A DNA stretch of 42,654 nucleotides from Acinetobacter phage vB_AbaP_Acibel007. The translations under genes were made by a program, and so were the position numbers. Shown piece by piece: positions 520 to 42,654 of the stretch. The notes beneath the pieces were generated by a model, which did no database searches, was not told where the DNA came from, and was given only the letters and a program-made list of their open reading frames with translations. The stretch lies in sequence record KJ473423.1, one strand, 5' to 3'. Position 1 is the stretch's first letter; each line of letters opens with the position of its first letter.

Positions 520-538
520 TCTTATACGTCTATCTTCT
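520..538 (-). promoter_or_regulatory. Inverted copy (19-bp core) of the conserved 25-bp AGAAGATAGACGTATAAGA element
   Basis: The + strand reads TCTTATACGTCTATCTTCT. This is the exact reverse complement of AGAAGATAGACGTATAAGA, which is found at 11548-11566 and 22506-22524. Confidence 0.5.
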
Positions 539-696
539 GATTTTCCTTAATGAATACAATAACTTATCTGATTAGAAACACGAATAAATTGATACTTTAT
601 TAACAATAGATAACATAAGCATAAGTATATAAATCAATAACTTAATAGAATTACTGTAAAGTTATGTAATAATTATAAGATTCTTTAAATAGAGTG

Positions 697-4247: not shown

Positions 4248-4259
4248 CTGTACTCACAA
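4248..4259 (+). promoter_or_regulatory. CTGTACTCACAA motif, copy 2, intergenic, 45 nt upstream of the kinase start codon
   Basis: Exact CTGTACTCACA core. It is preceded by gtcgtgagt, which resembles copy 1's ctgtgagg. Confidence 0.45.
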
Positions 4260-5473: not shown

Positions 5474-5542
5474 GGCTTAAATATAGCAGCACTTCGATGA
5501 GGTGCTGTTAGTATTTAATCACAGAACGTAAGGAGTTCTATC

Positions 5543-9504: not shown

Positions 9505-10274
9505 AAACAGGTGATGATGTAAAATGTATTAATAACTTTGGTATTTGGACGCTACGTGAGGGGCATGTATATCGTGTCCTTGATGTACGTAATACAGTAA
9601 TCCAAGTCCAAGGTAAACACGGTTGCACTAACTGGTACAAGAAAGATCGTTTCGTTAAAATTAAAGAGGGTAATCACATGGGTACATTAACTAAATCTGA
9701 AGTTAAAGTAGGCGATAAAGTAGTACGTATCAGTGGTACTGGGTTACGAGTAGGTGCGGAGTTCACAGTCATTGGTGTGCGTCCTGATGGTGCTGCTGTA
9801 CGTTTACAGGGTCAAGGTAGTGGTTGGTTCTGCATGAGTACATTCTCTATTGTAGAGCGTGTGAAGCCTCAACCGAACGTACTCACAGATGATCAAGTGT
9901 TTAAGTATTTAGCTGACGGTGTTGAACTTGAATACTTCTTCGATGATGTTTGGCACAAGATCGATAACCCGAAAGGTGTTAGTATCCAATTCATTCAAAC
10001 TACACAGTTCCGTAAGAAGCGTGAGTTAATGGAAGTGAATGGTATTGAAGTACCTAAAGGTAGTATGCGTGCAGTTCTCTTTGATGAGAAAGGTATCGGT
10101 TACGGGGTATCTTTTAATAAACGTGAAGTGTACAAAGCACCTCTTAAACAATTGGGACTCTGTGGTACTATGTATTGGACTGACCCTCAAGAAGCTCAAG
10201 AGGTATTGGAAGCATTACTCAAACCATTTGGTATGTATGCTAAACCTTTGAAATCAAACCTATTGGGGTCTTAA
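9501..10274 (+). CDS. Hypothetical protein with internal duplicated small beta-barrel-like repeat (257 aa)
   Basis: ATGA overlap with the helicase. Two ~35-aa segments share a G-D-x-V...V..V..QG pattern (aa 3-39 and 69-105). Confidence 0.55.
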   Translation: MKTGDDVKCINNFGIWTLREGHVYRVLDVRNTVIQVQGKHGCTNWYKKDRFVKIKEGNHMGTLTKSEVKVGDKVVRISGTGLRVGAEFTVIGVRPDGAAVRLQGQGSGWFCMSTFSIVERVKPQPNVLTDDQVFKYLADGVELEYFFDDVWHKIDNPKGVSIQFIQTTQFRKKRELMEVNGIEVPKGSMRAVLFDEKGIGYGVSFNKREVYKAPLKQLGLCGTMYWTDPQEAQEVLEALLKPFGMYAKPLKSNLLGS

Positions 10275-10275
10275 T

Positions 10276-11271
10276 ATGGACTTAGCATTTGTCGCTGATT
10301 ACTTGGCTAATCGCAAGAACCCTGTACAACTTGTCAAACATTTTGATGAAGTTAATGAAAAGAACATCAAATACCCACTGATCGGACAGCTTAAATATGA
10401 CGGCATTTATTGTTTACTTGTGTGCATTGGCTCTGAACTTCAGTTGTTTAGTCGTGTGGGCAAACCTCTCTACATGGAGAACCTCAACGGTTTTATGGAT
10501 GGTCAGCTTTGCAATCTTGCTGATGGTGTGTATATCGGGGAACTATGTACTAATGAGTTATCTTTAGAGGTGCTTAGTGGTTATGTATCACCTAACCGTA
10601 AGAAGCCGTGGGATGACGTAGGGACGCATAAGATCGGTGAACTAGGTTACATAGCATTCCATGATTACTTAACGGTAGATGAGCTGTTAGACGGTCACAG
10701 CGATACATCCTATCGTAACCGTTACTCAAACTTAGAAAACCGTTTGCAGAATGCAGCTATCGTTGGGTACACGGTGAAGTCTACACTGATCTATGATCGT
10801 GAACAGGCTGATGCTTACGCTGAAGACTTAATTAAACGTGGGCATGAGGGTGCTGTCTTTAAAGACCCTAATGCAGATTGGGAAGCAGGTCATAAAGGTT
10901 ATCGTGCAATGAAGATTGTACGTGGTATCCCTCCTCTTGATCTTCTATGTGTAGGTGTTGTCTATGGTAAGGGTAAACGAGCAGGTCAAATTGCTGCTCT
11001 ACGCTTCACCATGCACGGTAATGAGTTCAATGCTGATCTTGGTAAGGGTTGGACAGATGAACGTCGTGATCTACTAACACTCGCTTACCAAGAGGATCGT
11101 GGTGAGGGTTGGGATTGCAAGGTGTATAGCGGTACGCTTAACGAAGAAATGCGTAACCCTGTAGGTAAGATTTGGGAACTCAAAGCATTGCAGTATAGCT
11201 CAACTGGTAAGGCATTACGTCTACCAAAGGTTGTACGAGTACGTGAAGATAAGGAGACTCCTGATGCTTAA
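10276..11271 (+). CDS. ATP-dependent DNA ligase
   Basis: Adenylation motif QLKYDGIY (KxDG) and an EGAVFK motif. The size and position match the T7 gp1.3 family. Confidence 0.85.
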   Translation: MDLAFVADYLANRKNPVQLVKHFDEVNEKNIKYPLIGQLKYDGIYCLLVCIGSELQLFSRVGKPLYMENLNGFMDGQLCNLADGVYIGELCTNELSLEVLSGYVSPNRKKPWDDVGTHKIGELGYIAFHDYLTVDELLDGHSDTSYRNRYSNLENRLQNAAIVGYTVKSTLIYDREQADAYAEDLIKRGHEGAVFKDPNADWEAGHKGYRAMKIVRGIPPLDLLCVGVVYGKGKRAGQIAALRFTMHGNEFNADLGKGWTDERRDLLTLAYQEDRGEGWDCKVYSGTLNEEMRNPVGKIWELKALQYSSTGKALRLPKVVRVREDKETPDA

Positions 11272-11446: not shown

Positions 11447-11503
11447 TTTCATAAGGTAACGTGTCCATAATGTAAAGTTATGTAACTAACAGTCTGAAAA
11501 TAA

Positions 11504-11541
11504 CGTGTTTGAGGTTTTATAAGTATATGATTTCAAACACG
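11504..11541 (+). other. 9-bp perfect inverted repeat (CGTGTTTGA / TCAAACACG) hairpin immediately upstream of 25-bp element copy A
   Basis: Bases 11504-11512 are the reverse complement of 11533-11541. The loop is 20 nt. Confidence 0.4.
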
Positions 11542-11544: not shown

Positions 11545-11569
11545 ATTAGAAGATAGACGTATAAGATAG
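11545..11569 (+). promoter_or_regulatory. Conserved 25-bp element ATTAGAAGATAGACGTATAAGATAG, copy A (candidate phage RNAP promoter), 25 nt upstream of the DNA polymerase ATG
   Basis: Identical at 25/25 to 22503-22527. It contains two AGATAG words 13 bp apart, and a TATAAG that resembles the -4..+1 TATAG of T7/SP6/K11-class promoters, with an AT-rich ATTAG at the 5' end. Confidence 0.5.
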
Positions 11570-11593
11570 ATAGAATCCACATAAGGAAACTGT

Positions 11594-13900
11594 ATGTTTA
11601 AACATAATTTCTTTATCCATGACTATGAAAACCAAAACCATCCTTGGTACGGTTCAATAGCATCACCACATTGTCCTGATAACTATATTGTAGCTACTGG
11701 ATATTGTATTGATGGGGGTGACATACAAGCACATTACTTTGATAGTGATGAAGAAGCTAAGTCACATAAATGGATTGACAAGTTACAAGATTGTAAGATG
11801 TATGTAGCACATAACGCTACGTTTGAAATCCAATGGATGTTACGAACTTATCCTACTCAATTCTTAGATTGGATTAAGAAAGGTGGTAAGGTATTCTGTA
11901 CACAATATGCAGAGTATATGTTAACCCATCAACTTGAGATGTATCCTAAGCTTGAAGACTGTGCTATTAAGTATGGTGGTTCTAAGAAGATTGATGAAGT
12001 TAAATTACTTTGGGAACAAGGTGTATTAACTGCTGACATTGACAAAGCTCTACTGATGAAATACTTAGCAGACCCTAAACTTGGTGACGTAGCGAATACT
12101 CGTCGTGTATGCTTCAGTCAAGTAGCTTTGTTACGTAAACACGGTATGTGGGATATGTTCATGGAACGTATGAACTCACTACTGTTTAACGCTATTGCTA
12201 GTTACCACGGCTTATATGTGGATATGGAAGTAGCTAAGCGTAACCAACAAGCTCAGGAAATTGAAATTGAAAATATTAAAGCGTCCATCTTGGATATGTT
12301 ACCTGCTGATCTTCCTGACGACTTTGAGTTCTCATTCACATCCGCATACCACTTGTCGGCATTCTTGTTCGGAGGTACGATTCAGTACAAAGCGAAAGTA
12401 AGTTATGACCCTATCAAGTATGTGAAGAAAGACTGCTATCAATTTGGTGATAAGTTTGTACCTGTCACTGATGATGAATCTATACTTGTACAGTATGAGC
12501 TTGTGTATGGTGAGGCTTTACGCTTTCTACGTGGTAAGAATGCAGGGCAGTTAAAGATAGTTAAAGTAGAGACTGCTGAGGAACTTCTGAAGTGGGGTGA
12601 TAAACAATACCGCTTCAAAGGTTTACTTGATTTCGATACACTACCTAAGATTGTGTCTGAAGCTTATGTAGGTAAGCGTGCTGAGTTCCGTGGTAAACGA
12701 GAGCTTGTAGATGGTACGCCAATCTACAGTACAGGTAAGGATAGTCTCGATGTACTTGCAGCTCATACGGATGTTGCAAAGCCATTGAAGAACTTAGCTG
12801 CACTTATCAAAGACACCACTACTTATTACCTTGTCGTTGATGACAAAGGTAAAGAGTCGGGTATGCTTCAATTCGTAGAGCCTAACGGTATCATTCATCA
12901 TCAACTTAACAACTGTGCAACTATTACAGGTCGCTTGTCAGGTAGTAAGCCTAACATGCAGAATATTCCTCGTGATGGTACATCTAAAGTTAAGGAGATG
13001 TTTAGCTCACGCTTTGGTGTTAATGGACGTATCGTTGAGGTCGATTATTCTGCTCTTGAAGTTGTAGCCCTAGCCAGTATCTCAGGTGATAAGAACTTGA
13101 TGCGGATGCTGATTGAGGGTATCGACATGCACTGTTATCGTCTAGCTGCAAAGCTTGGTGAAGACTATGAAAGTGTATTCGAGAAATGCCACAACAAAGA
13201 ACACCCTGAGCATAAGCAATACAAGCAATGGCGTACAGATATTAAACCTCGTGCCTTTGCTCACCAATATGGTGCATCTGCTGAGGGTATCGCATTTAGT
13301 ACAGGTTGTACCTTAGAGGATGCACAAGAGTTCAAGAACATTGAGTTTGAATTGTTCCCTGAATCTAACGCATTCCCTGCTAAGTTTGTACGACCGATGG
13401 TAGAGGAAACAGGAAATGCTGCACAACCCATTCGTGAGTTTGATGAAGAAAGTGGTCGTTATAATGTGTATCGTCGGGGTTACTTTCAAGCGAAGTCAGG
13501 TACTTGCTACTCATTCCGTCAATATGATAAATGGGATAAAGAGCTTCGTATTACCGTCAAAGACTACAAAGACACACAGATTGCAAACTACTGGTGTCAA
13601 GGTGAAGCATCCTTTATTGTTCAAGCTGCTTGTGGGCGAGTCATCCGTGAACTCATTAAACGAGATTTTGCAGATGGATTGGTCGTGCCGATCAATACCG
13701 TACACGATGCAATCTACTTGGATTGTGCAACGGAAGCACTTGCTAAAGAATACGGGGCGTTGGTAAGGGATATTATGGAGGCTACTCCTAAGTACCTTGC
13801 TGAAGTTATCCCTGCACTTAAAGATTGGAACTATCACTTAACACCATTCCCTGCTGCTGCTGAATGTGGGGTTAACATGATGAACAAAGAGGATATTTAA
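11594..13900 (+). CDS. DNA polymerase, family A (T7 gp5-like)
   Basis: Pol I motifs TGRLSGSKPNMQNIP (motif A region) and NTVHDAIYLD (motif C). An N-terminal 3'-5' exonuclease-like region. 768 aa. Confidence 0.95.
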   Translation: MFKHNFFIHDYENQNHPWYGSIASPHCPDNYIVATGYCIDGGDIQAHYFDSDEEAKSHKWIDKLQDCKMYVAHNATFEIQWMLRTYPTQFLDWIKKGGKVFCTQYAEYMLTHQLEMYPKLEDCAIKYGGSKKIDEVKLLWEQGVLTADIDKALLMKYLADPKLGDVANTRRVCFSQVALLRKHGMWDMFMERMNSLLFNAIASYHGLYVDMEVAKRNQQAQEIEIENIKASILDMLPADLPDDFEFSFTSAYHLSAFLFGGTIQYKAKVSYDPIKYVKKDCYQFGDKFVPVTDDESILVQYELVYGEALRFLRGKNAGQLKIVKVETAEELLKWGDKQYRFKGLLDFDTLPKIVSEAYVGKRAEFRGKRELVDGTPIYSTGKDSLDVLAAHTDVAKPLKNLAALIKDTTTYYLVVDDKGKESGMLQFVEPNGIIHHQLNNCATITGRLSGSKPNMQNIPRDGTSKVKEMFSSRFGVNGRIVEVDYSALEVVALASISGDKNLMRMLIEGIDMHCYRLAAKLGEDYESVFEKCHNKEHPEHKQYKQWRTDIKPRAFAHQYGASAEGIAFSTGCTLEDAQEFKNIEFELFPESNAFPAKFVRPMVEETGNAAQPIREFDEESGRYNVYRRGYFQAKSGTCYSFRQYDKWDKELRITVKDYKDTQIANYWCQGEASFIVQAACGRVIRELIKRDFADGLVVPINTVHDAIYLDCATEALAKEYGALVRDIMEATPKYLAEVIPALKDWNYHLTPFPAAAECGVNMMNKEDI

Positions 13901-14523
13901 TGCATATTGCATCCACTATGCCACAGGGTATATTCTGCCCGTTACCTGCTGTCAGTAACTTAGAGTTCTGTAACTTCACTTACATGTGTGTTCGTGACCC
14001 TCTTGCATTTGAGGGTGCATTACGAGTACCTGAGAACTTACAGGATATAGTTATCCCACTGTTATCTTTGATACTGGATAAGGTAGACACGGATGATTAC
14101 ATTTATGTCACAGTTAGTCGTAAACACCTACAACCTAACACATGCGGTAATCGAGCAGGTTGGCATGTGGATGGTTTCCTAAGTGATGATCAATCATTTA
14201 TTTGGTTCGATAAGTTACCTACTCAAATTGCATTGGGTGGCTTTGAGGTTAGCCCTGATCATGAACAATCATTAGAGCAGTTTGATGCCCAAGTAGATTA
14301 CGGGAATATACAGTACACTGAACCTGCTATGTTGTACGAATTAAAAGATTGTGTACATCGACCAGTCTTCAACCACACTAATGACGTTCAGTTGCGTACC
14401 TTTGTTAAGATCGTAATTAGTAAAGAACGTTTCAATGGTATAGGTAATGCTTGGAATTACCTACTACCACACATCAAACCTACTAAACAGCGTGGTGAGT
14501 CTCGTAACCACACTGTAGTTTAA
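13900..14523 (+). CDS. Hypothetical protein (207 aa)
   Basis: TAATG overlap with the polymerase and an AAGAGG SD. Confidence 0.6.
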   Translation: MHIASTMPQGIFCPLPAVSNLEFCNFTYMCVRDPLAFEGALRVPENLQDIVIPLLSLILDKVDTDDYIYVTVSRKHLQPNTCGNRAGWHVDGFLSDDQSFIWFDKLPTQIALGGFEVSPDHEQSLEQFDAQVDYGNIQYTEPAMLYELKDCVHRPVFNHTNDVQLRTFVKIVISKERFNGIGNAWNYLLPHIKPTKQRGESRNHTVV

Positions 14524-14524
14524 C

Positions 14525-14536
14525 CTGTACTCACAA
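14525..14536 (+). promoter_or_regulatory. CTGTACTCACAA motif, copy 3, intergenic, 34 nt upstream of ATG 14570
   Basis: Exact core. It is followed by CTCAAT, as in copy 4. Confidence 0.45.
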
Positions 14537-14569
14537 CTCAATTCTTAAATTTATATCGGAGATTATTTC

Positions 14570-15496
14570 ATGACTCAATCAGCTATCAACTTCTTAGACC
14601 TTGCACACGGTATCGACGTAACTACTCTTGACGACATGACTGATGTTTCATCAGGTGGTGGTGCTAAACGTGGTTTATTACCCGCAGGTGTAGCTTTTGT
14701 AGTATTCAGTTCATACATTGAGTATGGTAACCAACCACAAACTTTTGAGGGTAAAGCTAAAGACCCGCTACCTGAGTTCCGTTTAGGCTTCCACGTTGTA
14801 GGTGGCGTAGGTACTAACAAAGAGGGTGAGCTTGAAGATTATGTGCAAGATGGTTTCTGCCCTACAATCAACGCATTCGATTGTAAGTTGAGTACGAATG
14901 AGAAAGCCCGTGCTGTTGCGTACTTCAATGCGATTAACATTGCACCTAAAGGTACACACTTCATTCAGAAGTTAGGTACATTATACACAGTGGAAATTAA
15001 GATCGGTAAGAATAAGAAGACTGGTAAAGATCAGAACGAAATTGACTTCCGTAACTTACAACCCGCTGTGGATGCTGCAACACGTAAACCATATACCACA
15101 TACTGTAATGCTGCTGATGAAGTAGTACCTATGGGCGTAGTTAAACCTGAAGATGTTAAAGTCTTCTTATGGAATAAACCACCATCGGTTACTAGCGAAC
15201 AGTATCAAGCTATGTGGGATAGTATTGAAATTAAAGGTGAGTATGAAGTTAAGGATGCTGATGGTAAAGTAACTGGTAAGAAGTCTAAAAACTTCATCCA
15301 AGAGAAATGCTTATCCGCTCTGAACTTTGCAGGTTCAAGCCTAGAGCAGTTATTATCAGGAGGTGTTATGCCACCTCTTGACGCTGATGAAGCTGAGGCT
15401 GCTGATACACAAGCTAAACAGGAAGCTGTTAAGGCTGAGGTTGTTGAAGAACCTGAATCTGAAAATGAAGTTGCATTGGATGTTCCTGACCTCTAA
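14570..15496 (+). CDS. Hypothetical protein with strongly acidic C-terminal tail; possible ssDNA-binding protein
   Basis: The C-terminal ~45 aa are about 40% Asp/Glu (…DADEAEAADTQAKQEAVKAEVVEEPESENEVALDVPDL), which resembles the acidic tail of T7 gp2.5. The gene sits inside the replication module directly behind a motif copy. The assignment is an inference. Confidence 0.35.
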   Translation: MTQSAINFLDLAHGIDVTTLDDMTDVSSGGGAKRGLLPAGVAFVVFSSYIEYGNQPQTFEGKAKDPLPEFRLGFHVVGGVGTNKEGELEDYVQDGFCPTINAFDCKLSTNEKARAVAYFNAINIAPKGTHFIQKLGTLYTVEIKIGKNKKTGKDQNEIDFRNLQPAVDAATRKPYTTYCNAADEVVPMGVVKPEDVKVFLWNKPPSVTSEQYQAMWDSIEIKGEYEVKDADGKVTGKKSKNFIQEKCLSALNFAGSSLEQLLSGGVMPPLDADEAEAADTQAKQEAVKAEVVEEPESENEVALDVPDL

Positions 15497-15506
15497 TGTG
15501 ACCGAG

Positions 15507-15524
15507 TGAACCCTACGGGGTTCA
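15507..15524 (+). other. Hairpin TGAACCC-tacg-GGGTTCA, 10 nt after the stop of the preceding gene
   Basis: A 7-bp GC-rich stem with a 4-nt loop. It is followed by a second overlapping inverted repeat (TTCATTCACAGA / TCTCTGAATGAA). No clean U-tract follows. Confidence 0.35.
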
Positions 15525-15579
15525 TTCACAGAAGCGATCATTTGTGATTGTTTCTCTGAATGAATCATAGGAGACTTAA

Positions 15580-15903
15580 ATGACTGATACTAAACGTGCT
15601 ACTGGGCGTACTACCCGTATGATATTCAAGGTTGGTGAGTTTCTAGCTGCTAACCCTGATGAGACAGCTACCATTATAATTCACTCCCAATCGTGGGGTT
15701 GGATGCGTAACATGGTTAATAGTCTGCTCTCGTCGGATATGTCTACCCGTATTACCATTAAATCCTACAGTACATGGTCGTCATCGGGTATAGGTAAACG
15801 TCCTGATTATTTCTTTGATCACCACTGTTTTTATGACCAGTACCTACGGGCTAAAGCTACACTGGAATATGTAGAACAGGAGTACACAAAATATGACGTT
15901 TGA
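15580..15903 (+). CDS. Hypothetical protein (107 aa)
   Basis: ATG with a TAGGAG SD. Confidence 0.55.
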   Translation: MTDTKRATGRTTRMIFKVGEFLAANPDETATIIIHSQSWGWMRNMVNSLLSSDMSTRITIKSYSTWSSSGIGKRPDYFFDHHCFYDQYLRAKATLEYVEQEYTKYDV

Positions 15904-16864
15904 TCTAAGTCAATTTGGTTTAGATGCTAAGGCGTTACAATCTCAGGATACATACAAAACCTCAACGGCAGGTAGTGTTCTATTACTGGATGGTGATGGG
16001 AATGCTTACGAAGCTGCTGCGGGTAAAGCCAAACCTGAGACCGCCTTACGTCACTTTGAACGTAGTATTTATGAAGCTATGTTCCTAGCAGGTTGTGAGA
16101 AAGCACGAGTACATTTAACCCCTCGTGGATGCTTCAAGAATGGTCGTCATTTGCTGTTAGGTGTTAAGCCTTACCAACTACAGCGCAGTAACAATAAAAA
16201 GCCACCACTGGTCGCTGTGTTGCGTTCTGAACGTGCTATAGACTGGTTCGCTAACAATGATGATATTGAGATCATCCTGAACTATCAGATTGAAGCCGAC
16301 GATGCTTTGATGATCGACCATTACCGCATGACTAATGGAATCCTACTGAGTGCGGATAAGGATTTAAACTTGAGTCCTTATAAGTCATACAGTATGGATG
16401 ATGGTAAACATATAGTGCTACCTGATGGTGATACGTTTGGTTGGATTGATCGTAAGCACTGGTTAACACCAAGTCTTAAACCTGCATCTAAGATGATCGG
16501 TAAAGGTACTAAGTTCTTCTTATCTCAGATGCTCATGGGTGATACTGCTGATAACGTCAAAGGTATTATAAAGCTCAATGGTAAAGCGTGCGGTGAGGCA
16601 GGTGCTTATGAAGCCCTAGACCCTATCAAGGATAAACATGAAGCTGTGAACTTCGTTATTGAAGCTTACAAGAAGATTGATCAAAACATTATCCCTGAAG
16701 CTGAAGCTATGTGGTTATTGCGTAATGCACAAGATAACTCATTAAAGTTCTTTATGGAACATGACCTAACTGATAGTAACTTAAATTTCTTAAACGAATG
16801 CTACCATGACCGTAAATGGAAAATGGAAGCTGATGATTATGAGGGTGACCTAAATGAAATATAA
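15893..16864 (+). CDS. 5'-3' exonuclease (FEN/T7 gp6 family)
   Basis: The N-terminus LLLDGDGNAYEAAAG is PIN-like. The H3TH motif is LMGDTADNVKGI. 323 aa. Confidence 0.8.
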   Translation: MTFDLSQFGLDAKALQSQDTYKTSTAGSVLLLDGDGNAYEAAAGKAKPETALRHFERSIYEAMFLAGCEKARVHLTPRGCFKNGRHLLLGVKPYQLQRSNNKKPPLVAVLRSERAIDWFANNDDIEIILNYQIEADDALMIDHYRMTNGILLSADKDLNLSPYKSYSMDDGKHIVLPDGDTFGWIDRKHWLTPSLKPASKMIGKGTKFFLSQMLMGDTADNVKGIIKLNGKACGEAGAYEALDPIKDKHEAVNFVIEAYKKIDQNIIPEAEAMWLLRNAQDNSLKFFMEHDLTDSNLNFLNECYHDRKWKMEADDYEGDLNEI

Positions 16865-17417
16865 TATTCCTGAAGCTGTACAGCACGTTATTGATCAACT
16901 TAAATTGGTTGGTATTGAAGCTACGTTGGTAGGTGGTGCGTTACGTGCTGCTGCTCTTGGTGGTACATCCAATGATTATGATTTAGTTATATTTGGTGAA
17001 CGTGAGGACTTCTTCCACACTGATAAGGAGATCGAGTATTTAGGTTTCCGTAACCAACACCATGACGAATACTGTAACAACGAGGGTTATGTAGCAGATT
17101 GGCGTAAAGATGATGTGAATATCATCATGTATGATTCTTGCAAAGTAGCTGACTGGTATGCCTTGATTGAAGTGTTTGATTTAAACATCAACCAATGGTA
17201 TATCAACGAAGCAGGTGAGCTTGAGAATGATTACTATGACCCTGAAACTAAGCTCGTAAGTATTAACCCATTCCGTGATGGTCTAGGTCATGCTGAACGT
17301 CTCACCCAACGTATTGAACGCTTCCGTACTATGCTTCCCGATCTTGATTGGTCTGAGATTGAGAAGCGTCGTAAGGTTAACGATTACCTTGGTACGGAGA
17401 TCGTAAGTTATGTCTAA
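16854..17417 (+). CDS. Putative nucleotidyltransferase (Pol-beta-like NTase fold)
   Basis: The N-terminus GGALRAAALGGTSNDYDLVIF matches the GGxVRD…DxD head-domain signature of CCA-adding/polyA-polymerase-type nucleotidyltransferases. 187 aa. Confidence 0.5.
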   Translation: MKYNIPEAVQHVIDQLKLVGIEATLVGGALRAAALGGTSNDYDLVIFGEREDFFHTDKEIEYLGFRNQHHDEYCNNEGYVADWRKDDVNIIMYDSCKVADWYALIEVFDLNINQWYINEAGELENDYYDPETKLVSINPFRDGLGHAERLTQRIERFRTMLPDLDWSEIEKRRKVNDYLGTEIVSYV

Positions 17418-17859
17418 ACCTTTACAACGTATCCCACGTAGTCAGTTATTAGCTGTCACTATGTCCATCCTAGCCAAGCAAGGCGGGAAGTGTCCTATCT
17501 GCTGTCGTATGATTAACACTAAGGTTGCAGGTCGATCTTCAGACTACGTAGCCGATCATGATCATAAGACAGGTGAGATTCGTGGTGTACTTCATCGTTC
17601 CTGTAATGCTGCTGAGGGTAAGGTAGCCAATGCAGCAGGGGCGTGGGGTGCTAAGTCTATGGCGTATGAGGATATTGTCCCATTCGTTGAGGGTTTAGTT
17701 ACATACTGGAAGAACGCTGAGAAGTATGGTACTGGTATGATGTACCCTGAGCACAAAACTGATGAGCAAAAGAAAGCTGCTGCGTCATTGAAACGTCGTA
17801 AAGCTTACGCTGCAAACAAAGCTAAACAAAAGGTAAAAGATAATGCAAGTAAACGATAA
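17410..17859 (+). CDS. Endonuclease VII-type Holliday junction resolvase (HNH-like)
   Basis: CPICC…DHDHKTGEIRGVLHRSCNAAEGK matches the T4 endonuclease VII / recombination-endonuclease signature. Confidence 0.8.
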   Translation: MSKPLQRIPRSQLLAVTMSILAKQGGKCPICCRMINTKVAGRSSDYVADHDHKTGEIRGVLHRSCNAAEGKVANAAGAWGAKSMAYEDIVPFVEGLVTYWKNAEKYGTGMMYPEHKTDEQKKAAASLKRRKAYAANKAKQKVKDNASKR

Positions 17860-18034
17860 GATTACATGTGCCTATGCAGGGCAGTATCAAGGCACATATC
17901 TTACAACATTTAAAACTTATACAGCCCTCAGTACCATGCACGATCATGGACGGGACTATGTAAATCTAGTTGATGATTCAGGTGCAGAACGCACATATAC
18001 CGCTAACCGATTCGTAGTACAGGAGAACTCTTAA
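17843..18034 (+). CDS. Hypothetical small protein (63 aa)
   Basis: Translationally coupled on both sides. Confidence 0.45.
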   Translation: MQVNDKITCAYAGQYQGTYLTTFKTYTALSTMHDHGRDYVNLVDDSGAERTYTANRFVVQENS

Positions 18035-18969
18035 TGTCACAAGCCCACTTCAATAAACTGAAACCGTGGAAACAAACTGCACTACGTCTACACATGCAAG
18101 GTATGACTGCTGCTGAAATCTCTCGTGAATTTAATAATGAAATCTCAGATCGCACTATCCGAGATAACATTCAGAAACTTGCACCTCAATTTGAACGTAG
18201 TGTTGTACTTGCAGATCGTAAACCAACTATATTCGTGATTGGTGATACACAGTGTAAGCAAGGTATTGACCTCGATTATATGCATTGGATTGGGTCTTAT
18301 ATCGCATACAAGAAACCTGACATTATTGTGCATATCGGTGATCACTATGATATGGCTTCATTATCAAGTTATGATAAGGGTCAGTTAAAGGCTGAGGGTC
18401 GTCGTGTTGTAGAAGATATTGAGGCGGGTGATAAAGGTATCGAGATCATCGAATCTTATATTGCTAAGGTCAAAGGTTATAAACCACGTAAGGTTGCGAC
18501 GTTAGGTAATCATGAGCATCGTATTGATCGTTACGTTAATGATAATCCTGAGCTTGAGGGTTTCATGGGTACAGATCAATTAGCCTTTGCTAAACACGGT
18601 TGGGAAGTCTTTCCGTTCTTAACACCCGCCACTATCTGTGGTATCAACTTCGTACACTTTGTACAGAACGGTATGACGGGTAAACCGCTAGGTGGTACGA
18701 TCTTAACTCGACTGAAGAACGTGGGTGAGTCTTTCGTAATGGGGCATCAACAAACACTTGATCATTGTATCCGCTATCTACCCCTAAGTGGTCGAGCGCA
18801 GATTGGTGTTATCATTGGTGCATGTTATGAACACATGGAAGACTATAAAGGCGTACAAGGTAATCATCACTTCCGAGGTTGTGTTATGCTATATGAATGT
18901 AATGATGGTTTTGGTTTGGTTAAGCCTGTATCACTTCAACACATGAAAGATCAATTCTTAGGAGCTTAA
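18034..18969 (+). CDS. Calcineurin-like metallophosphoesterase with N-terminal HTH-like region
   Basis: MPP motifs: VIGDTQ (I), HIGDHYD (II), LGNHEHR (III, GNHE). The N-terminal ~60 aa are helix-turn-helix-like (MTAAEISREF…RTIRDNIQKL). Confidence 0.7.
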   Translation: MSQAHFNKLKPWKQTALRLHMQGMTAAEISREFNNEISDRTIRDNIQKLAPQFERSVVLADRKPTIFVIGDTQCKQGIDLDYMHWIGSYIAYKKPDIIVHIGDHYDMASLSSYDKGQLKAEGRRVVEDIEAGDKGIEIIESYIAKVKGYKPRKVATLGNHEHRIDRYVNDNPELEGFMGTDQLAFAKHGWEVFPFLTPATICGINFVHFVQNGMTGKPLGGTILTRLKNVGESFVMGHQQTLDHCIRYLPLSGRAQIGVIIGACYEHMEDYKGVQGNHHFRGCVMLYECNDGFGLVKPVSLQHMKDQFLGA

Positions 18970-18971
18970 TT

Positions 18972-19613
18972 ATGAAAATCGGTTTAATTGGTTTAGCAGG
19001 TGCAGGTAAGGACACAGCAGCATTATTGATTCAAAAGATTCTTACAGATAATGGTAAAGCATACAAGATTGATCGCTTTGCTAAGCCTCTTAAAGATGCA
19101 GCTCGTGAGGTCTTCGGTGCTACATTCGATGATCGTGATGTTAAGGAAGTACCTGTTAAGGTAGATCAAGATACCATGATTGAAGCCTCATTTAAAGCGT
19201 TACGTAAGTGCCGACTTACTGAAGCTGAAATGGATAAAGCATCTGAGTTGTTCTTTGAACACTTAGGATTTTGGAATTACCTATCCCCTCGTAAATACCA
19301 ACAGTTGCTCGGTACAGAGGTTGGACGAGCTGCACGTAGTACCGTATGGTCTGATCGAATTACGAAGTCTACAGCTAATCTGATCGTACCTGATGTACGG
19401 TTTGATGGGGAGGTTGTAGATTACAATATTCTAATCACCCGTCACCCTGTAGGGGTCGGTAGTGTACATGCTTCTGAGGTACTCGCTACAGAGATGCAGC
19501 TAGGTCTTAATGAATCTTATGATGCTATGTTCACGAACACTGGTACTATTGATGAGCTTGAGTCTAAGCTACGTACCCACATTGAAAACTTAATTAAGCA
19601 AGAGGTTATCTAA
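18972..19613 (+). CDS. Putative deoxynucleoside-monophosphate kinase (P-loop)
   Basis: The N-terminus MKIGLIGLAGAGKDTAALLI carries the G-x-x-GxGKDT P-loop typical of T4/T5-type dNMP kinases. Confidence 0.55.
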   Translation: MKIGLIGLAGAGKDTAALLIQKILTDNGKAYKIDRFAKPLKDAAREVFGATFDDRDVKEVPVKVDQDTMIEASFKALRKCRLTEAEMDKASELFFEHLGFWNYLSPRKYQQLLGTEVGRAARSTVWSDRITKSTANLIVPDVRFDGEVVDYNILITRHPVGVGSVHASEVLATEMQLGLNESYDAMFTNTGTIDELESKLRTHIENLIKQEVI

Positions 19614-19617
19614 TCGT

Positions 19618-22047
19618 ATGGATTTACTACAACGTCAGATTGATTTGGAAGAAGAATACTCAACAGCAAGTTTAGTTGCAGGCCAACAACAGATCATGGA
19701 TGCTTTCAAACAAGGACGAGCTTCTGACGTTGGTTCAGGGCGCTTGTTACTTGCTAAAGCATTCCAAGCTTCTATGGAAGACTTTGAATCATTCTTAGCT
19801 AAACCACTATCAGGTATTGGTGGTAAGTATAAGAAGTTATTAAAGATTGCAAAGCCTGAAGTATTAGTTATGGCGGGTATCCGCGAGGTTATCAATGGCT
19901 GTGCTAACCCTGAACCTATAGTAATGCAGAGCTTCTTACGTCAACTAGGTCGGATTATTGAATCTGAATCTATGTTGGTATGTATGGAGCAAGTATCTGA
20001 TGTTTATACAAATCGTACAGTAGAGTATCTTGATTCAGCAGGTACTAAATCCACTACACACCGCTACCGTACATTCCTTAAAGGCGCACAGAACATGGGT
20101 CTTAACTGGGAACAATGGACTGTAGAGGAACGTATAGGTACTGCCCGTTTACTATTGACTTGTCTTTATGAAAGTACGGGTTTATTCAAGTGGGTAGCTA
20201 ACCGTGGCACTACAGATTCTATGTATTACCTTGTGCCAAGCGAGACTTTAGAGAAACACTTTGGAGAAGTACAGAGTGCTGCTAAGGCTGTAGTTAAATA
20301 TCCACCTATGTTAGTACCGCCAATGGATTGGACTGGACAATACGACGGGGGTTATATGACAGAGTGGTTTCGTTTACACTCTCCTATGTGTGGTATCCGT
20401 TTCATTAAACCTGAACATAAGAAATGGATTATTCAGAACTTAAACAGCGAGCAATCGCTCCCTGTACGTACTGCAATGAACAAAGCACAGTCTGTACCTT
20501 ACCGTGTGAATCAGCGTGTATTGACGATTCTACGTACTGCTACGGCTATGCGTGTGGGTATCCTTGGATTACCTAGTTTCGTTGAAACACCTAAACCTGA
20601 GTTCCCATTACCGCAAGGTTGGGAAAAGGATGCAGCTACACAAGCCGAGCTTGAACAATTCCAATTTTGGAAAACTCAAATGGCTACTTACTACACTAAT
20701 GAGGCTAAACGTAAAGGTCGTCACATGGGTATCCTGTCACGTATCAATGAACTTGTGAAATATCAAGAGGAATCACGCTTATACTTCCCGACATTCATTG
20801 ACTGGCGTGGTCGTTTATACTTCCGTTCTAATCTTAACCCGCAATCATCTGATGCAGTTAAAGGCTGCTTAGAGTTCGCTGAGGGTAAAGTGTTAGGTAA
20901 AGATGGACTGCGTTGGTTAAAGGCGCATGTCGCTAACTGTTGTGGTTTTGATAAACACGACTTAGATACAAAGGTAGCTTGGACAGATGAGAACTGGTCG
21001 CAAATTGAAGATTTTATCAATAACCCCCTTGATGTTGATGCCCCTGAACCTGACACAGCATTTACATTATTGCAAGCTGCTATCGCCTTACAAGAAGCAC
21101 TCGCACTGCCTAATCCCGAACTTTATGTATGTCACGTACCTGTCGCTATGGATGCTACATGCTCAGGCTTACAGCACCTGTCTGCACTCACTCGTGACCC
21201 CGTAGGTAGTTATTACACAAACCTTGTAGATAACAAAGACAATAAAAAGTCTGACATTTACATGCGGGTTGCTGAAGTTGCTAAGAGCATGTTACCTAAG
21301 CTAATTGACGATGTGACAGTAGATCACTTTTGGAAAGTGAATGAGATCACACGTTCTATGGCTAAGAATCCTGTAATGACTTATGTGTACGGTGCAACGC
21401 TACTACGTTGTATTGATACCATTGGTTTAGCCCTATCTGAATCAGGTGTTGAACCTATTAAGAACGATGCAGGTAAAGTTGTATATAGTATGACTGCACT
21501 TGCTACACCTGTAGGGAAAGCTTTACGTAAAGGTGTTGAAGAAACTGTACCTGAATCTGCTAAGATGATGAAGTTCTTACAGACTGTGGTACGTAAACAT
21601 AAAGAGCATTGTATGCGTTGGGTTACCCCTGCGGGTGTTCCTGTAGTTAACTGGGCAGAGGGTTCTATCATCAAAACGCTTAACATCCGTTCTATGGGTG
21701 TCACCTCAGTAACTATGAAAGTAGGTACTAAGCAATATGATACTCGTTCAGCAGCAAACGGTATTGTACCCAACTTTGTACATAGTATGGACGGTTCACA
21801 TCTATGCTTAACTATTAACGAGTTCAATGGGCAGGTTCTACCTATCCACGACTCATTCGCTACCCATCCTAGTGACGTAGGTGCTATGCATGAAGCTTTA
21901 CGTAAGACATTTGCTGATATGTATAAAGCTTATGATATTAACGACTTCTTAACTTTCAATGAAGTCGATACAGAAGAATACGAAGCACCACCTCAAGGTA
22001 ATCTTGACTTGGACTCTGTACTCACAGCTCAATTTATGTTTTGTTAA
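19618..22047 (+). CDS. Single-subunit DNA-directed RNA polymerase (T7-like), 809 aa
   Basis: Catalytic motifs DATCSGLQHLSA (motif A) and PIHDSFATH (motif C). It lies at the end of the replication module directly upstream of the structural genes, which is phiKMV-type order. Confidence 0.95.
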   Translation: MDLLQRQIDLEEEYSTASLVAGQQQIMDAFKQGRASDVGSGRLLLAKAFQASMEDFESFLAKPLSGIGGKYKKLLKIAKPEVLVMAGIREVINGCANPEPIVMQSFLRQLGRIIESESMLVCMEQVSDVYTNRTVEYLDSAGTKSTTHRYRTFLKGAQNMGLNWEQWTVEERIGTARLLLTCLYESTGLFKWVANRGTTDSMYYLVPSETLEKHFGEVQSAAKAVVKYPPMLVPPMDWTGQYDGGYMTEWFRLHSPMCGIRFIKPEHKKWIIQNLNSEQSLPVRTAMNKAQSVPYRVNQRVLTILRTATAMRVGILGLPSFVETPKPEFPLPQGWEKDAATQAELEQFQFWKTQMATYYTNEAKRKGRHMGILSRINELVKYQEESRLYFPTFIDWRGRLYFRSNLNPQSSDAVKGCLEFAEGKVLGKDGLRWLKAHVANCCGFDKHDLDTKVAWTDENWSQIEDFINNPLDVDAPEPDTAFTLLQAAIALQEALALPNPELYVCHVPVAMDATCSGLQHLSALTRDPVGSYYTNLVDNKDNKKSDIYMRVAEVAKSMLPKLIDDVTVDHFWKVNEITRSMAKNPVMTYVYGATLLRCIDTIGLALSESGVEPIKNDAGKVVYSMTALATPVGKALRKGVEETVPESAKMMKFLQTVVRKHKEHCMRWVTPAGVPVVNWAEGSIIKTLNIRSMGVTSVTMKVGTKQYDTRSAANGIVPNFVHSMDGSHLCLTINEFNGQVLPIHDSFATHPSDVGAMHEALRKTFADMYKAYDINDFLTFNEVDTEEYEAPPQGNLDLDSVLTAQFMFC
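22016..22027 (+). promoter_or_regulatory. CTGTACTCACAG motif, copy 4, inside the last codons of the RNAP gene, 37 nt upstream of ATG 22065
   Basis: Exact core followed by CTCAAT. TTGACT sits 9 nt upstream. Confidence 0.45.
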
Positions 22048-22064
22048 TCAAGGAGATTACTACT

Positions 22065-22367
22065 ATGTTATTCACTATTATCGCTCTTGTTGTTCTTTCT
22101 TACATGTCAGTTAAATTATATGCTTGGGACTTGAAAAATGAGTTCACGGGTTTTGGTGACTTCCTTAAAGATTGGGTAGGTTGCTTCTCTAAAGCGGAGC
22201 TTGGTCAAGAATTTAAACTGTTTGGTTATGAGTTGGTAGAAGCGTTCAAAGCGTTCCTACTGCCTATCAAGACACTAGGTACTATTGCACTGGTCGTGTT
22301 CTCACCTATCCTACTATTTGTAGTTAATATCCTAACCGCACTTATCAAAGTACATAAACGTAAGTAA
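22065..22367 (+). CDS. Small membrane protein (100 aa, two predicted TM helices)
   Basis: ATG 22065 with an AGGAG SD. The track start 22041 is TTG. Hydrophobic stretches: IIALVVLSYMSV and TIALVVFSPILLFVVNILTALI. Confidence 0.55.
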   Translation: MLFTIIALVVLSYMSVKLYAWDLKNEFTGFGDFLKDWVGCFSKAELGQEFKLFGYELVEAFKAFLLPIKTLGTIALVVFSPILLFVVNILTALIKVHKRK

Positions 22368-22371
22368 TCAG

Positions 22372-22409
22372 AAGCCCTTGAGCCTAACCGCTTGAGGGCT
22401 TTTTTTTTT
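22372..22409 (+). terminator. Rho-independent terminator after the RNAP operon
   Basis: A 12-bp GC-rich stem (AAGCCCTTGAGC / GCTTGAGGGCTT, two G-U pairs) with a 6-nt loop, followed by a run of 10 T (22400-22409). Confidence 0.85.
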
Positions 22410-22430
22410 GTTTATCAATAACTTAACGAG

Positions 22431-22450
22431 TTACACAATGTTACACATGT
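22431..22450 (+). repeat. Tandem 10-bp direct repeat TTACACAATG / TTACACATGT between terminator and late element
   Basis: The two units differ by a 2-bp transposition (AT/TG) at unit positions 8-9 and are adjacent. Confidence 0.35.
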
Positions 22451-22502
22451 TGAATAACGTCTGTTCAATAGTGCTACGTAAGTGTATGATTTTAAATAAG
22501 TA

Positions 22503-22527
22503 ATTAGAAGATAGACGTATAAGATAG
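22503..22527 (+). promoter_or_regulatory. Conserved 25-bp element ATTAGAAGATAGACGTATAAGATAG, copy B (candidate late phage promoter), 18 nt upstream of the first late gene
   Basis: Identical to 11545-11569. It is the first element after the RNAP gene and terminator and heads the structural module. That is where a phage-RNAP late promoter is expected. Confidence 0.5.
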
Positions 22528-26406: not shown

Positions 26407-26434
26407 GGAGGGCTTCGGCTCTCCATTCAATTTT
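26407..26434 (+). terminator. T-phi-like hairpin terminator after the capsid gene (UUCG tetraloop)
   Basis: Stem GGAGGGC-ttcg-GCTCTCC (7 bp, one G-U pair), followed by ATTCAATTTT. Its position is analogous to T-phi after T7 gene 10. Confidence 0.5.
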
Positions 26435-27533: not shown

Positions 27534-29843
27534 ATGGCAGTACGTGAGGGTACGTATAAATCCTTATTACAAGGTGTATCGCAACAGACCCCACAAGAAC
27601 GTGCAGACGGACAATTAGGTTCACAGCTTAATATGCTGTCTGACCCTGTTACTGCATTACGTCGTCGTGGTGGTATTAAATTACATGCTGTATTAGAAGA
27701 CTTGGACAAGAGTAGTTATATTCGCATGACCGAGATTCTAGGTGATACTTATATTACCGTTATTGATACAGCTAAAGGTTCATTAAGTGTATACACTTTT
27801 GATGGTGGACTAAAGTCAACTATTCAAAATGATTATTTTAAAGCTCGTAGTAAATCTAGTATTCGTACTACAGTATCTAAGGATAATTTCTTCATTCTAA
27901 ATACTGAGTTAATCCCTACCAAACAGCTCGAAGCTGAGGCGGGTAAGAATCCTAAGCACTACGGGTACTTCAGCATTGTGTCTACAGCGTTTAGTAAAGT
28001 ATTTACTATATCTGTAACTCACCCCTCTATTGGTACTATAACTAAGACGGTTACTGCATCTAGCGACAATGCTGCTGAGGCAAGTCAGGAAAATATCGCT
28101 CGTGGTCTTGCGGATTTATTCTCTCAAGATACTACTTTTGCAGCGGTGTTTAATGTACACCGTACAGGTATAACTGTAGCGTTTGAGGTAAAGGATAAGA
28201 CGCAAACTGGTACTACAGTTGTGGACTCTACTACTGGTGTTACTTATGTTGTTAAGTCAGGTGCATCCCGTGTTGTGAATAAGGCTGAGTTACTGGGTAC
28301 ACTACCATCGGTACTTGATGGTTATATCATGGCTGTAGGTAACGTAGGTAACTCTGCATACTACAAATTCGATCATGGTGCATTACGTTGGGCTGAGACT
28401 GGTGTTTATGAGCCTAACTATAAACTTATCAATGAGCCTATGTATTGGTATCTTGATGCTGCTGATACTGTGAAGCTTGTACCGTTAGGTATTAAACCTC
28501 GTGAGGCAGGTGATGACGATAATAACCCTGACCCTAAATTCATTGGGTACGGTTTGACAGGTATTGGTAGCTACCAATCCCGTCTAGTATTATTGAGTGG
28601 TTCATACGTCAATATGAGTCAGACGCGTTACTTCAACCAATTCATGCGTACTACGGTTACTGAACTGTTAGATGATGATGCTATTGAGGTTTCTAGTTCT
28701 GCACTTAGCTCTGCACAGTTTGAATACTGTGTGCCTTATAATAAGGACTTGGTGTTAATTGCACAGACACAGCAAGCAGTGATCCCTGCTAACTCGACTG
28801 TACTCACACCTAAATCTGCGGTGATCTATCCGAGTACAAAAGTAGATTTGTCACTAGCTGCTGAACCCCAAGTTGTAGCTAGAAGTTTGTATTACACGTA
28901 TCAACGTGGGGCAGATTATTATCAAGTAGGTGAGTTTATTCCCAACACATATACCGACGCACAGTATTACAATCAGAATTTAACTGATCATGTACCACTG
29001 TACGCTACAGGTGTTTGTACATGTATTGCTGCATCTACTACTAACAACATGGTAGTGATGAGTTCAGACTCCCGTGATGTATTGGTTAATCAGTTCTTAT
29101 GGGTTGGTGAAGATCGCCCTCTGATGAGCTTCCATAAATGGGAGTACCCATTACCTGTTGTATACGCTCAGTTCATTCAAGAATACTTAATCGTGTTCAT
29201 GGATGATGGGCAGGGTAACTTAGTCATCGGTACTCAGAACGTACAGTTAAACCAATTAGATGATAAACCTATCCCATTCCTTGACTTGTATGGTTATGTG
29301 ACCATTGAGAACGGTGTTGGTGTTTTACCTGAGTATTTACTTGAGATGAAACCTGATGATATGGAGTTAGCTGCATCTATATATAATGACCGTTATCTGC
29401 GCCACCAAGAGATTGAGTTCTCGTATGATGATGAGGGTAATGTTACATGTCCTTATGATGGTGTTATCTATGTTGGTGTACGCTTCACAAGTGAGTTTAC
29501 TTTGACACCTCCTTTTATTAAGGATGAGAACGGTAAGGTCGTGGCAGGGGCTAAGAGTACGGTAGTACGCCTAGACATGGAATTTAAGAACACAGGTACG
29601 TTTAAAGTGTCCGTAAAGGATACTATGGGTGACTCATACTACAATGAGCTTGATACTGCTTTAACGTGGTCTGAGGCTGATTTAGGATATACATGGGTTA
29701 ATAGTATCGGTCAGGTATCTATCCCGTGTCGTACTCGTTTAACGTCTACACAGTGTTCTGTAGAGACTGTAGGTACAACAGATTTAAACCTTACTAACTG
29801 CAACTACTTATTAAGGTTGAATCAGAAGCATCGGAGGATTTAA
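27534..29843 (+). CDS. Tail tubular protein B (T7 gp12-like)
   Basis: 769 aa (T7 gp12 is 794 aa). Position is after tubular A. Confidence 0.8.
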   Translation: MAVREGTYKSLLQGVSQQTPQERADGQLGSQLNMLSDPVTALRRRGGIKLHAVLEDLDKSSYIRMTEILGDTYITVIDTAKGSLSVYTFDGGLKSTIQNDYFKARSKSSIRTTVSKDNFFILNTELIPTKQLEAEAGKNPKHYGYFSIVSTAFSKVFTISVTHPSIGTITKTVTASSDNAAEASQENIARGLADLFSQDTTFAAVFNVHRTGITVAFEVKDKTQTGTTVVDSTTGVTYVVKSGASRVVNKAELLGTLPSVLDGYIMAVGNVGNSAYYKFDHGALRWAETGVYEPNYKLINEPMYWYLDAADTVKLVPLGIKPREAGDDDNNPDPKFIGYGLTGIGSYQSRLVLLSGSYVNMSQTRYFNQFMRTTVTELLDDDAIEVSSSALSSAQFEYCVPYNKDLVLIAQTQQAVIPANSTVLTPKSAVIYPSTKVDLSLAAEPQVVARSLYYTYQRGADYYQVGEFIPNTYTDAQYYNQNLTDHVPLYATGVCTCIAASTTNNMVVMSSDSRDVLVNQFLWVGEDRPLMSFHKWEYPLPVVYAQFIQEYLIVFMDDGQGNLVIGTQNVQLNQLDDKPIPFLDLYGYVTIENGVGVLPEYLLEMKPDDMELAASIYNDRYLRHQEIEFSYDDEGNVTCPYDGVIYVGVRFTSEFTLTPPFIKDENGKVVAGAKSTVVRLDMEFKNTGTFKVSVKDTMGDSYYNELDTALTWSEADLGYTWVNSIGQVSIPCRTRLTSTQCSVETVGTTDLNLTNCNYLLRLNQKHRRI

Positions 29844-42354: not shown

Positions 42355-42470
42355 TCGATAAAGAAGCAGTTACTAAGAAGTTAGAAACTATCAACGCTAG
42401 GATTAAAGATGCACAATCTATCCTAGCATTACTAAAAGCACTAAAGGAGAAATCAAATGTCAAGTATTAA
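42351..42470 (+). CDS. Putative 39-aa peptide
   Basis: ATGA overlap with the terminase stop. The ORF runs to TAA 42468-42470. Confidence 0.25.
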   Translation: MIDKEAVTKKLETINARIKDAQSILALLKALKEKSNVKY

Positions 42471-42654
42471 AGTTATTGTTGCTAATGTAGATGTACCTAA
42501 GTTAGCGAGCGGTGTGTCTAAGGCTCTAAGCGTCGCTAAGGCGGTTAGTAGCACTAAGGTATACAAAGGTAAGGATAAGGTTGAGAAAGCCCTAGATCGA
42601 GCTACTGTGGCTCTTGATGTAGGTGTAAGTATCTATCGTCTGTTCAAGCGTTAA
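42457..42654 (+). CDS. Hypothetical small protein (65 aa), last gene of the window
   Basis: AAGGAG SD. The stop codon coincides with the window end. Confidence 0.5.
   Translation: MSSIKVIVANVDVPKLASGVSKALSVAKAVSSTKVYKGKDKVEKALDRATVALDVGVSIYRLFKR

Follow-up and report, generated by a model that had tools for sequence, protein, structure and literature searches.

The sequence record of Acinetobacter phage vB_AbaP_Acibel007 (KJ473423.1), analyzed here as one stretch of 42,654 nucleotides (the window), carries three copies of a short element that very probably serve as the cognate promoters of the T7-type single-subunit RNA polymerase (RNAP) encoded by the same genome. Two identical copies of the 25-mer ATTAGAAGATAGACGTATAAGATAG stand in front of the DNA polymerase (DNAP) gene (copy A) and at the head of the late genes (copy B), and a third copy points leftward near the left end of the record (copy C). 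The RNAP, a protein of 809 residues, would be the factor that reads these elements in trans. This assignment is based on comparison of sequences, namely on the number and placement of the copies, their homology to validated promoters of sister phages, and their co-variation with a DNA-reading loop of the RNAP.

The initial annotation had described the 25-mer as a repeat with 25/25 identity whose recurrence is beyond chance, and an exact-match search bears this out. There are exactly two occurrences on the plus strand (coordinates of all features are given in Table 1), and 100 dinucleotide-preserving shuffles yield no match to the 25-mer. The reverse-complement copy of 19 bp that had been placed near the left end is likewise present, with the core AGAAGATAGACGTATAAGA matching 19/19 at positions 520-538 of the minus strand, and it extends to a 22-mer that is 21/22 identical to the element. 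The mismatch spectrum of the window has three sites at zero or one mismatch, and the next best sites carry at least six, which is near chance. Similarly, a scan of the window for weaker promoter copies with up to eight mismatches returned only chance-level matches beyond the three. Thus, the genome combines a single-subunit RNAP with a small set of near-identical elements of about 20 to 25 bp.

Copies A and B are intergenic and are oriented with the middle and late operons that they head. Copy A ends 24 nt before the start codon of the DNAP gene, and copy B ends 18 nt before that of the first late open reading frame (ORF), with the ribosome-binding site GGAAAGGAG in between, in keeping with the spacing of 18-25 nt claimed earlier. 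Copy B had also been taken for the first signal after the RNAP gene and its terminator. The terminator is indeed there, and it is the T02 of the published Acibel007 genome (PMC4128745), but copy B does not follow the RNAP gene directly, because an ORF of 108 codons precedes the terminator. Copy C is the exception to placement at operon heads, since it points leftward and has no gene downstream.

Homologous elements in related phages

Promoters of this kind have already been proven in sister phages. Those of the Friunavirus phages AS11 and AS12 were detected with MEME and verified in primer-extension experiments that used RNA of infected cells (Popova et al. 2017; Viruses 9:188; PMC5537680), and the GenBank record of AS12 (KY268295) lists a "phage RNA polymerase promoter" at 10105-10124, 20377-20396, and 20412-20431. 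The Acibel007 sequence ATTAGAAGATAGACGTATAAGATAGG can be aligned without gaps to the AS12 sequence ATTTGAAGTTACACTTATAGAAGG, with 18 of 27 positions identical and the pattern ATTnGAAG..A.AC.TATA..A shared between them. The two forward sites are syntenic as well, one lying 5' of the DNAP gene and the other 3' of the RNAP gene behind a terminator, and the AS12 promoters have an equivalent terminator directly in front. Acibel007, a member of the genus Daemvirus, belongs to the same subfamily as these phages (Beijerinckvirinae), and the RNAPs are about 63% identical. By sequence, the Acibel007 element is a member of the AS11/AS12 promoter family of the Beijerinckvirinae. It differs from its AS12 counterpart in the specificity block, which reads AT-AG in Acibel007 and TT-AC in AS12, in the corresponding loop residue of the RNAP (N versus A), and in the presence of one promoter after the RNAP gene where AS12 has two.

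Megablast places the window among Acinetobacter podophages, with vB_MZM_4AB-P (4AB-P) as the closest complete relative at about 90% identity and the AJO1/AJO2 contigs of the genus Daemvirus as the next closest. The initial annotation had anticipated that relatives would carry the element at equivalent positions, and it was found in every relative examined. Among the 12 relatives with sequence 3' of the RNAP gene, all 12 have a homologous element just 5' of the homologous first late gene, and equivalents in front of the DNAP gene are present in 4AB-P, AJO1, Bhz21, Petty, Aristophanes, and AB_SZ6. Seven complete genomes from several genera (Acibel007, 4AB-P, Bhz21, Petty, AS12, AB_SZ6, and Aristophanes) share one layout, in which a leftward copy at the left end is accompanied by a copy before the DNAP gene and by one or two copies after the RNAP gene, even though the sequences of the copies differ between genomes.

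These differences have a regular pattern. In 4AB-P the element reads AGAAG-TC-AGACGTATAAGA at the same three positions as in the window, so that all three copies show the same two-base change from AT to TC (AGAAG-AT-AGACG versus AGAAG-TC-AGACG), and AJO1 has the TC form at both sites that its contigs cover. The late-site element is AGAAGTCGGACGTATAAG in two relatives with the handles L002 and L003, GAA(A/T)GCTACA(C/T)GTATAAGA in Bhz21, TTTAGAAGGGACACTTATAAGA in Petty, ATTTCTAATAGTGGTACGTATAAGA in L007, TTAGACTGCAAGCGTATAAGA in L008, TTATATTGAGGTACGTATTAGAGGA in L009/L010, TTTAATAATCATGCGTATTAAGA in Aristophanes, and the AS12 sequence given above in AS12/AB_SZ6. A 3' block of the form (C/T)(G/T)TAT(A/T)A(A/G), which is CGTATAAG in Acibel007, is conserved across 11 lineages. 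The positions that vary by lineage, from about -8 to -12, are uniform among all copies within one genome.

No description of the element for Acibel007 or for the genus Daemvirus was found in the literature. The 4AB-P paper never mentions promoters, the AJO2 paper relied on a generic neural-network promoter predictor, and the Aristophanes paper used PhagePromoter and does not give the sequences. A genome-mining study from 2025 distinguishes T7-, phiKMV-, KP34-, and Syn5-like promoter classes and leaves 741 genomes without a definite prediction; Acinetobacter phages are not mentioned in it.

Co-variation with the specificity loop of the RNA polymerase

In T7 RNAP, residue N748 reads promoter positions -11 and -10, and the substitution N748D shifts the enzyme toward the specificity of T3 RNAP. 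The base-specific contacts of the beta-hairpin are made by R746, N748, R756, and Q758 (cited in PMC11880802). The RNAP of the window can be aligned to T7 RNAP without a gap from the conserved VTPxGxPV anchor through R746-L-N748, and N689 is therefore taken as the equivalent of T7 N748. A comparison with 4AB-P gives 49 differences among the 809 residues of the RNAP, with 10 of these falling among the 25 residues of the specificity loop (683-707) and 39 among the remaining 784. This loop is the most diverged 25-residue segment of the protein between the two phages (Fisher p=4e-7). The two bases by which the promoters of these same phages differ, AT versus TC, fall at -11/-10 when the TATA blocks are aligned.

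The same correspondence extends to the other relatives. An N at the N748-equivalent position goes with A or G at -11 (AT in the window, AG in L009/L010, and GG in Petty), K goes with TC (4AB-P/AJO1, L002, and L003), F with CT (Bhz21), A with TT or TG (AS12/AB_SZ6 and L007), H with GC (L008), and S with TC (Aristophanes). Across 11 lineages, which are not independent of each other, an invariant initiation block is accompanied by a lineage-specific block that changes together with the RNAP loop. The earlier proposal of cognate promoters for the phage RNAP gains support from synteny, from this co-variation, and from homology to the AS11/AS12 promoters. The pairing of a phiKMV-type gene order with a T7-like promoter, which had been suggested along with it, is likewise supported, and it is already documented in the sister phages.

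Several points weigh against this interpretation or limit its reach. The co-variation table comprises about 11 lineages, which are few and related, and its -11/-10 numbering hinges on the alignment of the TATA blocks, in which Petty has one extra base. A scan of metagenomes intended to widen the set contributed a single locus that duplicates L002, and 163 matches in a phage database are almost all near-identical Friunavirus sequences, so the table was kept at its present size. Furthermore, the loop codons of 4AB-P contain a copy of CTGTACTCACA, a motif discussed below, that coincides with 3-4 of the 10 loop substitutions, and hence not all ten need reflect promoter specificity. The leftward copies of Petty and AS12 deviate from the consensus at -4 to -1, and they may be weak for this reason. 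Finally, all three copies in the window are preceded by about 60 nt of weaker similarity (roughly 70% identity), and this conserved upstream sequence is not explained by a T7-type promoter model.

Table 1. Positions of the candidate promoters and associated features in the window
Feature	Coordinates	Strand	Basis
Promoter copy A (candidate middle promoter), ATTAGAAGATAGACGTATAAGATAG	11545..11569	+	Exact 25-mer; syntenic with the validated AS12 promoter 10105-10124 before the DNAP gene
Promoter copy B (candidate late promoter)	22503..22527	+	Exact 25-mer; syntenic with the validated AS12 promoters 20377-20396 and 20412-20431
Promoter copy C (candidate leftward promoter), ATCAGAAGATAGACGTATAAGA on the minus strand	520..541	-	Core 19/19, 21/22 overall; analogue is the LUZ19 antisense promoter P001
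Family A DNA polymerase gene, first gene 3' of copy A	11594..13900	+	Pfam DNA_pol_A 2e-30; ORF list
Single-subunit T7-type RNA polymerase gene, 809 aa	19618..22047	+	Pfam RNA_pol PF00940 4e-76, RPOL_N; alignment to T7 RNAP
RNAP specificity loop codons, residues 683-707, SIIKTLNIRSMGVTSVTMKVGTKQY	21664..21738	+	Ungapped alignment to T7
N689 codon, equivalent of T7 N748	21682..21684	+	Ungapped alignment to T7
ORF of 108 codons between RNAP gene and terminator	22041..22367	+	ORF list
Intrinsic terminator closing the middle transcription unit, ~100 nt 5' of copy B	22370..22403	+	Stem of 14 bp, then a T-run
First late ORF, 57 aa	22546..22719	+	ORF list; conserved in all relatives, promoter element always in front

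The published motif and other alternative readings

A different motif has been assigned the promoter role in this phage. The genome paper lists five phage-specific promoters of Acibel007 that it labels putative, all of which correspond to CTGTACTCACA, and the 25-mer is absent from its table (Merabishvili et al. 2014; PMC4128745). In the window, CTGTACTCACA has six exact copies, all on the plus strand (1324-1334, 2246-2256, 4248-4258, 14525-14535, 22016-22026, and 28798-28808), and two further plus-strand copies with one mismatch at 24178 and 37520. Six exact copies confined to one strand, where about 1.6 would be expected even with one mismatch allowed, amount to strong over-representation, and the motif is real. 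Four of them lie 25-260 nt 5' of ORF starts, the motif has ACTCAC in common with the T7 promoter, and it was predicted by PHIRE/MEME in 2014 and again in 2024. Even so, it is most unlikely that CTGTACTCACA is the true promoter of the phage RNAP and that the 25-mer is instead a signal in the 5' untranslated region or at the RNA level. The motif is identical in 4AB-P, Bhz21, Petty, L003, L010, and Aristophanes, and so remains unchanged among phages whose RNAP specificity loops differ, and AS12, where the mapped promoters belong to the 25-mer type, lacks it. No copy precedes the DNAP gene or the late operon, several copies lie within coding sequence, and the near-copy at 24178 in the head-tail connector gene has synonymous sites that are invariant in six lineages while neighboring codons vary.

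Experimental data point the same way. In a cell-free screen from 2024, Acibel007 RNAP combined with CTGTACTCACAGCTCAATTT was not among the eight active pairs named, and the "promoter" used there for phiKMV is the consensus of the phiKMV nick sites, CGACxxxxxCCTA/CTCCGG (PMC11475235). A role in the untranslated region also fails for copy C, because no gene lies downstream of it. Given its invariance against differing loops, its absence from AS12, its intragenic copies, and its absence from the active pairs named in the screen, CTGTACTCACA was rejected as the promoter. It has TA/CTC in common with the phiKMV nick consensus CCTA/CTCCGG and TACT in common with the nick site of phage tf, and it is strand-exclusive like both. 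The shared TA/CTC is the reason to consider that CTGTACTCACA may be a site-specific nick signal.

Conserved sequence upstream of the copies raises another alternative, in which the elements are operators for a DNA-binding regulator of phage or host and the real promoter lies elsewhere in a conserved module of about 90 nt. A candidate for that promoter would be the upstream tandem GTTACA, which resembles the KP34 (TAATGTTACAGGAGTA) and LUZ19 (TATGTCACACACA) promoters. The roughly 60 nt upstream of each copy are indeed conserved and include TAAGTnnnTGATT, the tandem RTTACAyAAnnTTACA, and the IHF-like ATCAATAACTTA, and a copy that is inverted relative to all genes could be tolerated if binding were symmetric. 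This explanation is nevertheless highly unlikely. The upstream motifs are missing from the AS12 forward promoters and from L003 and L007-L010, whereas the core always precedes the first late gene. Moreover, the variable block follows the RNAP specificity loop and none of the other proteins that were examined, and mapped 5' ends fall at the homologous elements of AS12. The tandem was also discarded as a KP34-like promoter in its own right, as it is lacking in several relatives and runs opposite to the core at copy A.

Two simpler accounts can be weighed against the same observations. It is extremely improbable that the copies are functionless dispersed repeats homogenized by gene conversion, even though their flanks are also similar at about 70%, a level of similarity that points to a duplicated cassette. 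The copies within one genome have cores with 100% identity but flanks that differ, the same three positions are filled in seven complete genomes of several genera with differing cores, and the conserved and variable parts follow the logic of T7 promoters. Recognition by host RNA polymerase, with sigma-70 or an alternative sigma factor, has only a vanishingly small chance of being correct. The resemblance of TATAAG to a -10 hexamer speaks for it, but a consensus scan of both forward sites found no -35/-10 pair, and the sigma-70 reading was dropped on that result. Good sigma-70 sites occur only in the early region (697-724, 950-978, and 1060-1088), and co-variation with the loop of a phage RNAP would not be expected for host promoters.

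The motifs upstream of the copies also deserve a record of their own. The tandem RTTACAyAAnnTTACA is found at 22430-22445 (+), 11471-11486 (-), and 655-670 (-), which is 60-130 nt 5' of each copy with no fixed orientation. It also occurs 5' of promoter copies in 4AB-P, Bhz21, L002, and Petty, and it resembles the core of the KP34 promoter. The sequence ATCAATAACTTA, at 22412-22423 and 634-645 (+), fits the IHF consensus WATCAANNNNTTR; it lies 5' of copies B and C, with conservation at the corresponding places in 4AB-P, AJO1, and Bhz21. A box with the sequence TAAGTnnnTGATT is located at about 22478-22491, 11520-11533, and 558-571 (minus strand), and it stands 10-25 nt 5' of the promoter in most copies. 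This box is found across genera, in Bhz21, in Petty, and as TAAGTTATTAAT at the leftward copy of AS12, and the T7-type model offers no explanation for it.

Predicted promoter function and the left end

If the phage RNAP uses the three elements as its cognate promoters, then their AT-rich 5' end and the variable block at about -12 to -7 would be read by the AT-rich loop and the specificity loop of the enzyme, respectively. The conserved (C/T)(G/T)TAT(A/T)A(A/G) end would be the place of DNA melting and RNA start, probably at A or G within TATA/AG. The 5' ends mapped by primer extension in the AS11/AS12 homologues lend indirect support to a start inside the element. Copy A would drive the operon for DNA metabolism, from the DNAP gene through the RNAP gene and on to the terminator 3' of it, so that transcription of the RNAP gene itself would create positive feedback. 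Copy B would drive the late operon of about 20 kb. Copy C probably fires as a promoter as well, and would transcribe leftward over an AGATAG-rich array (398-471) into the noncoding terminal region. On concatemeric DNA, this transcription would converge with late transcription. One possible role is transcription of the concatemer junction, for which the end promoters of T7 provide an analogy. Another option is the insulation of early genes from read-through, as proposed for the LUZ19 promoter P001 (PMC10914365).

The organization of the element parallels that of the class II/III promoters of T7, T3, and SP6, with an AT-rich segment at -17 to -13, a specificity block at about -12 to -7 for the beta-hairpin loop, and a TATA-like segment at -4 to -1. 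The natural changes at the N748-equivalent residue that accompany changes at -11/-10 also recall the switch between T7 N748 and T3 D749. In contrast to T7, there are three copies rather than 17-18, one copy is leftward whereas T7 has rightward promoters only, the likely start is not GGG, and the specificity loop is three residues shorter. Furthermore, the gene order is of the phiKMV type, with the RNAP gene at the end of the middle region.

Phages of the phiKMV type offer the closer parallel in layout. ONT-cappable-seq revealed four phage-specific promoters in LUZ19, including an antisense promoter at the early end whose transcripts run toward the right genome end, and 15 further Phikmvvirus species share this arrangement (Putzeys et al. 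2024; microLife 5:uqae002; PMC10914365). Like LUZ19 and phiKMV, Acibel007 has few promoters, placement of one 3' of the RNAP gene, and one antisense copy at the left end. Unlike in LUZ19, where the motif is unrelated (GgtTATGTCACacACAnnGG), a promoter is present before the DNAP gene, and the RNAPs are only about 30% identical. KP34 is similar in its phiKMV-like RNAP and in having about four promoters per genome, which in that phage are found both 3' of the RNAP gene and within the structural region. The KP34 promoter (TAATGTTACAGGAGTA; Lu et al. 2019) has a different sequence, and its ATGTTAC core resembles the upstream tandem GTTACA instead. By inspection, the 25-mer contains no core matching GgtTATGTCACacACAnnGG or TAATGTTACAGGAGTA. 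Overall, the element would function like the LUZ19 and KP34 promoters and shares their layout, but not their sequence family.

Copy C faces the terminal-repeat region and the 3' end of the late operon, and no ORF of at least 50 codons and no terminator were found on the minus strand downstream of it at the left end. A leftward left-end copy is also carried by 4AB-P, Bhz21, Petty (518), AS12 (561), AB_SZ6 (656), and Aristophanes (517), and thus the opposite-strand copy in left-end noncoding sequence, a layout like that of LUZ19 P001, is conserved among relatives. Terminal repeats are known for Petty (1-308), AS12 (1-338), and Aristophanes (1-184), and the leftward copy in these genomes lies about 200-330 nt inward of the left repeat. 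Only rightward promoters were reported for AS11 and AS12 (PMC5537680), and the leftward copy, including that of AS12 at 561-580, appears not to have been noted previously for the Beijerinckvirinae. The occurrence of a leftward left-end promoter in two distant branches of phiKMV-type phages argues for a real function.

It is conceivable, if rather doubtful, that the leftward promoter, the TAAGTTATTGAT box, the IHF-like ATCAATAACTTA, the tandem GTTACA, and the AGATAG array between the promoter and the terminal repeat together form one conserved cis-acting unit, present in all the Beijerinckvirinae genomes examined. If the phage RNAP transcribes into the terminal repeat or the concatemer junction, this activity might then be needed for the initiation of replication or for genome maturation, or it might act as a roadblock that insulates early genes from late read-through, and CTGTACTCACA would be a signal for site-specific nicks, comparable to those of phiKMV and tf. 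Other features of the left end (positions 1-520) are three GATTGG repeats (12-40), a GC-rich island (79-117), and the AGATAG array (398-471), all of which are conserved in 4AB-P, together with a good leftward sigma-70-like site running from 268 to 240 (TTGACA-17-TACAAT). The record begins one base past the stop codon of the last ORF (42457-42654), and its ends are therefore arbitrary, with the terminal repeat collapsed.

The identification of these probable promoters has practical consequences. It corrects the regulatory map of a phage that is a therapeutic candidate and for which the 2014 genome paper assigns a different motif. In the screen of Acibel007 RNAP for use in mRNA manufacture, the role of "cognate promoter" was also given to a motif of the CTGTACTCACA type, and this pair was not among the active ones; the 25-mer is a candidate replacement that can be tested directly. 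The natural variants at -11/-10 (AT, TC, CT, TT, etc.), paired with N, K, F, A, H, and S, would represent ready-made orthogonal polymerase-promoter pairs, and the series would provide an independent test of the T7 specificity rules in a distant RNAP clade.

Among neighboring features, the host promoters (689-734 and 1052-1098) and terminators (5487-5519 and 22374-22415) published for Acibel007 (PMC4128745) match the window exactly in sequence and coordinates. The first late ORF is followed by the head-tail connector gene and then by the remaining late genes, and a second terminator-like hairpin, at 26407-26424, lies 3' of the capsid gene. No known RNA family was matched when the whole window was scanned with Rfam.

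Some observations concern the records of relatives. The annotated DNAP start of Bhz21 (L006) at 10345 lies 5' of the promoter copy at 10364-10384, and this start is probably wrong because a protein started at the ATG at 10411 matches the DNAP of the window at its N-terminus. In AJO1 (L004), the late-promoter region appears twice within 1803-1906 with a run of N between the two occurrences, which could be either an assembly artefact or a case of tandem late promoters as in AS12, L007, and L008. The DNAP and RNAP genes of 4AB-P (L001; 15477-18489 and 23915-27105) are split by inserted ORFs relative to the window, which suggests intron or homing-endonuclease insertions. The insert in the DNAP gene carries the annotation of an HNH homing endonuclease, and the RNAP halves are misannotated as 'N4-like'.

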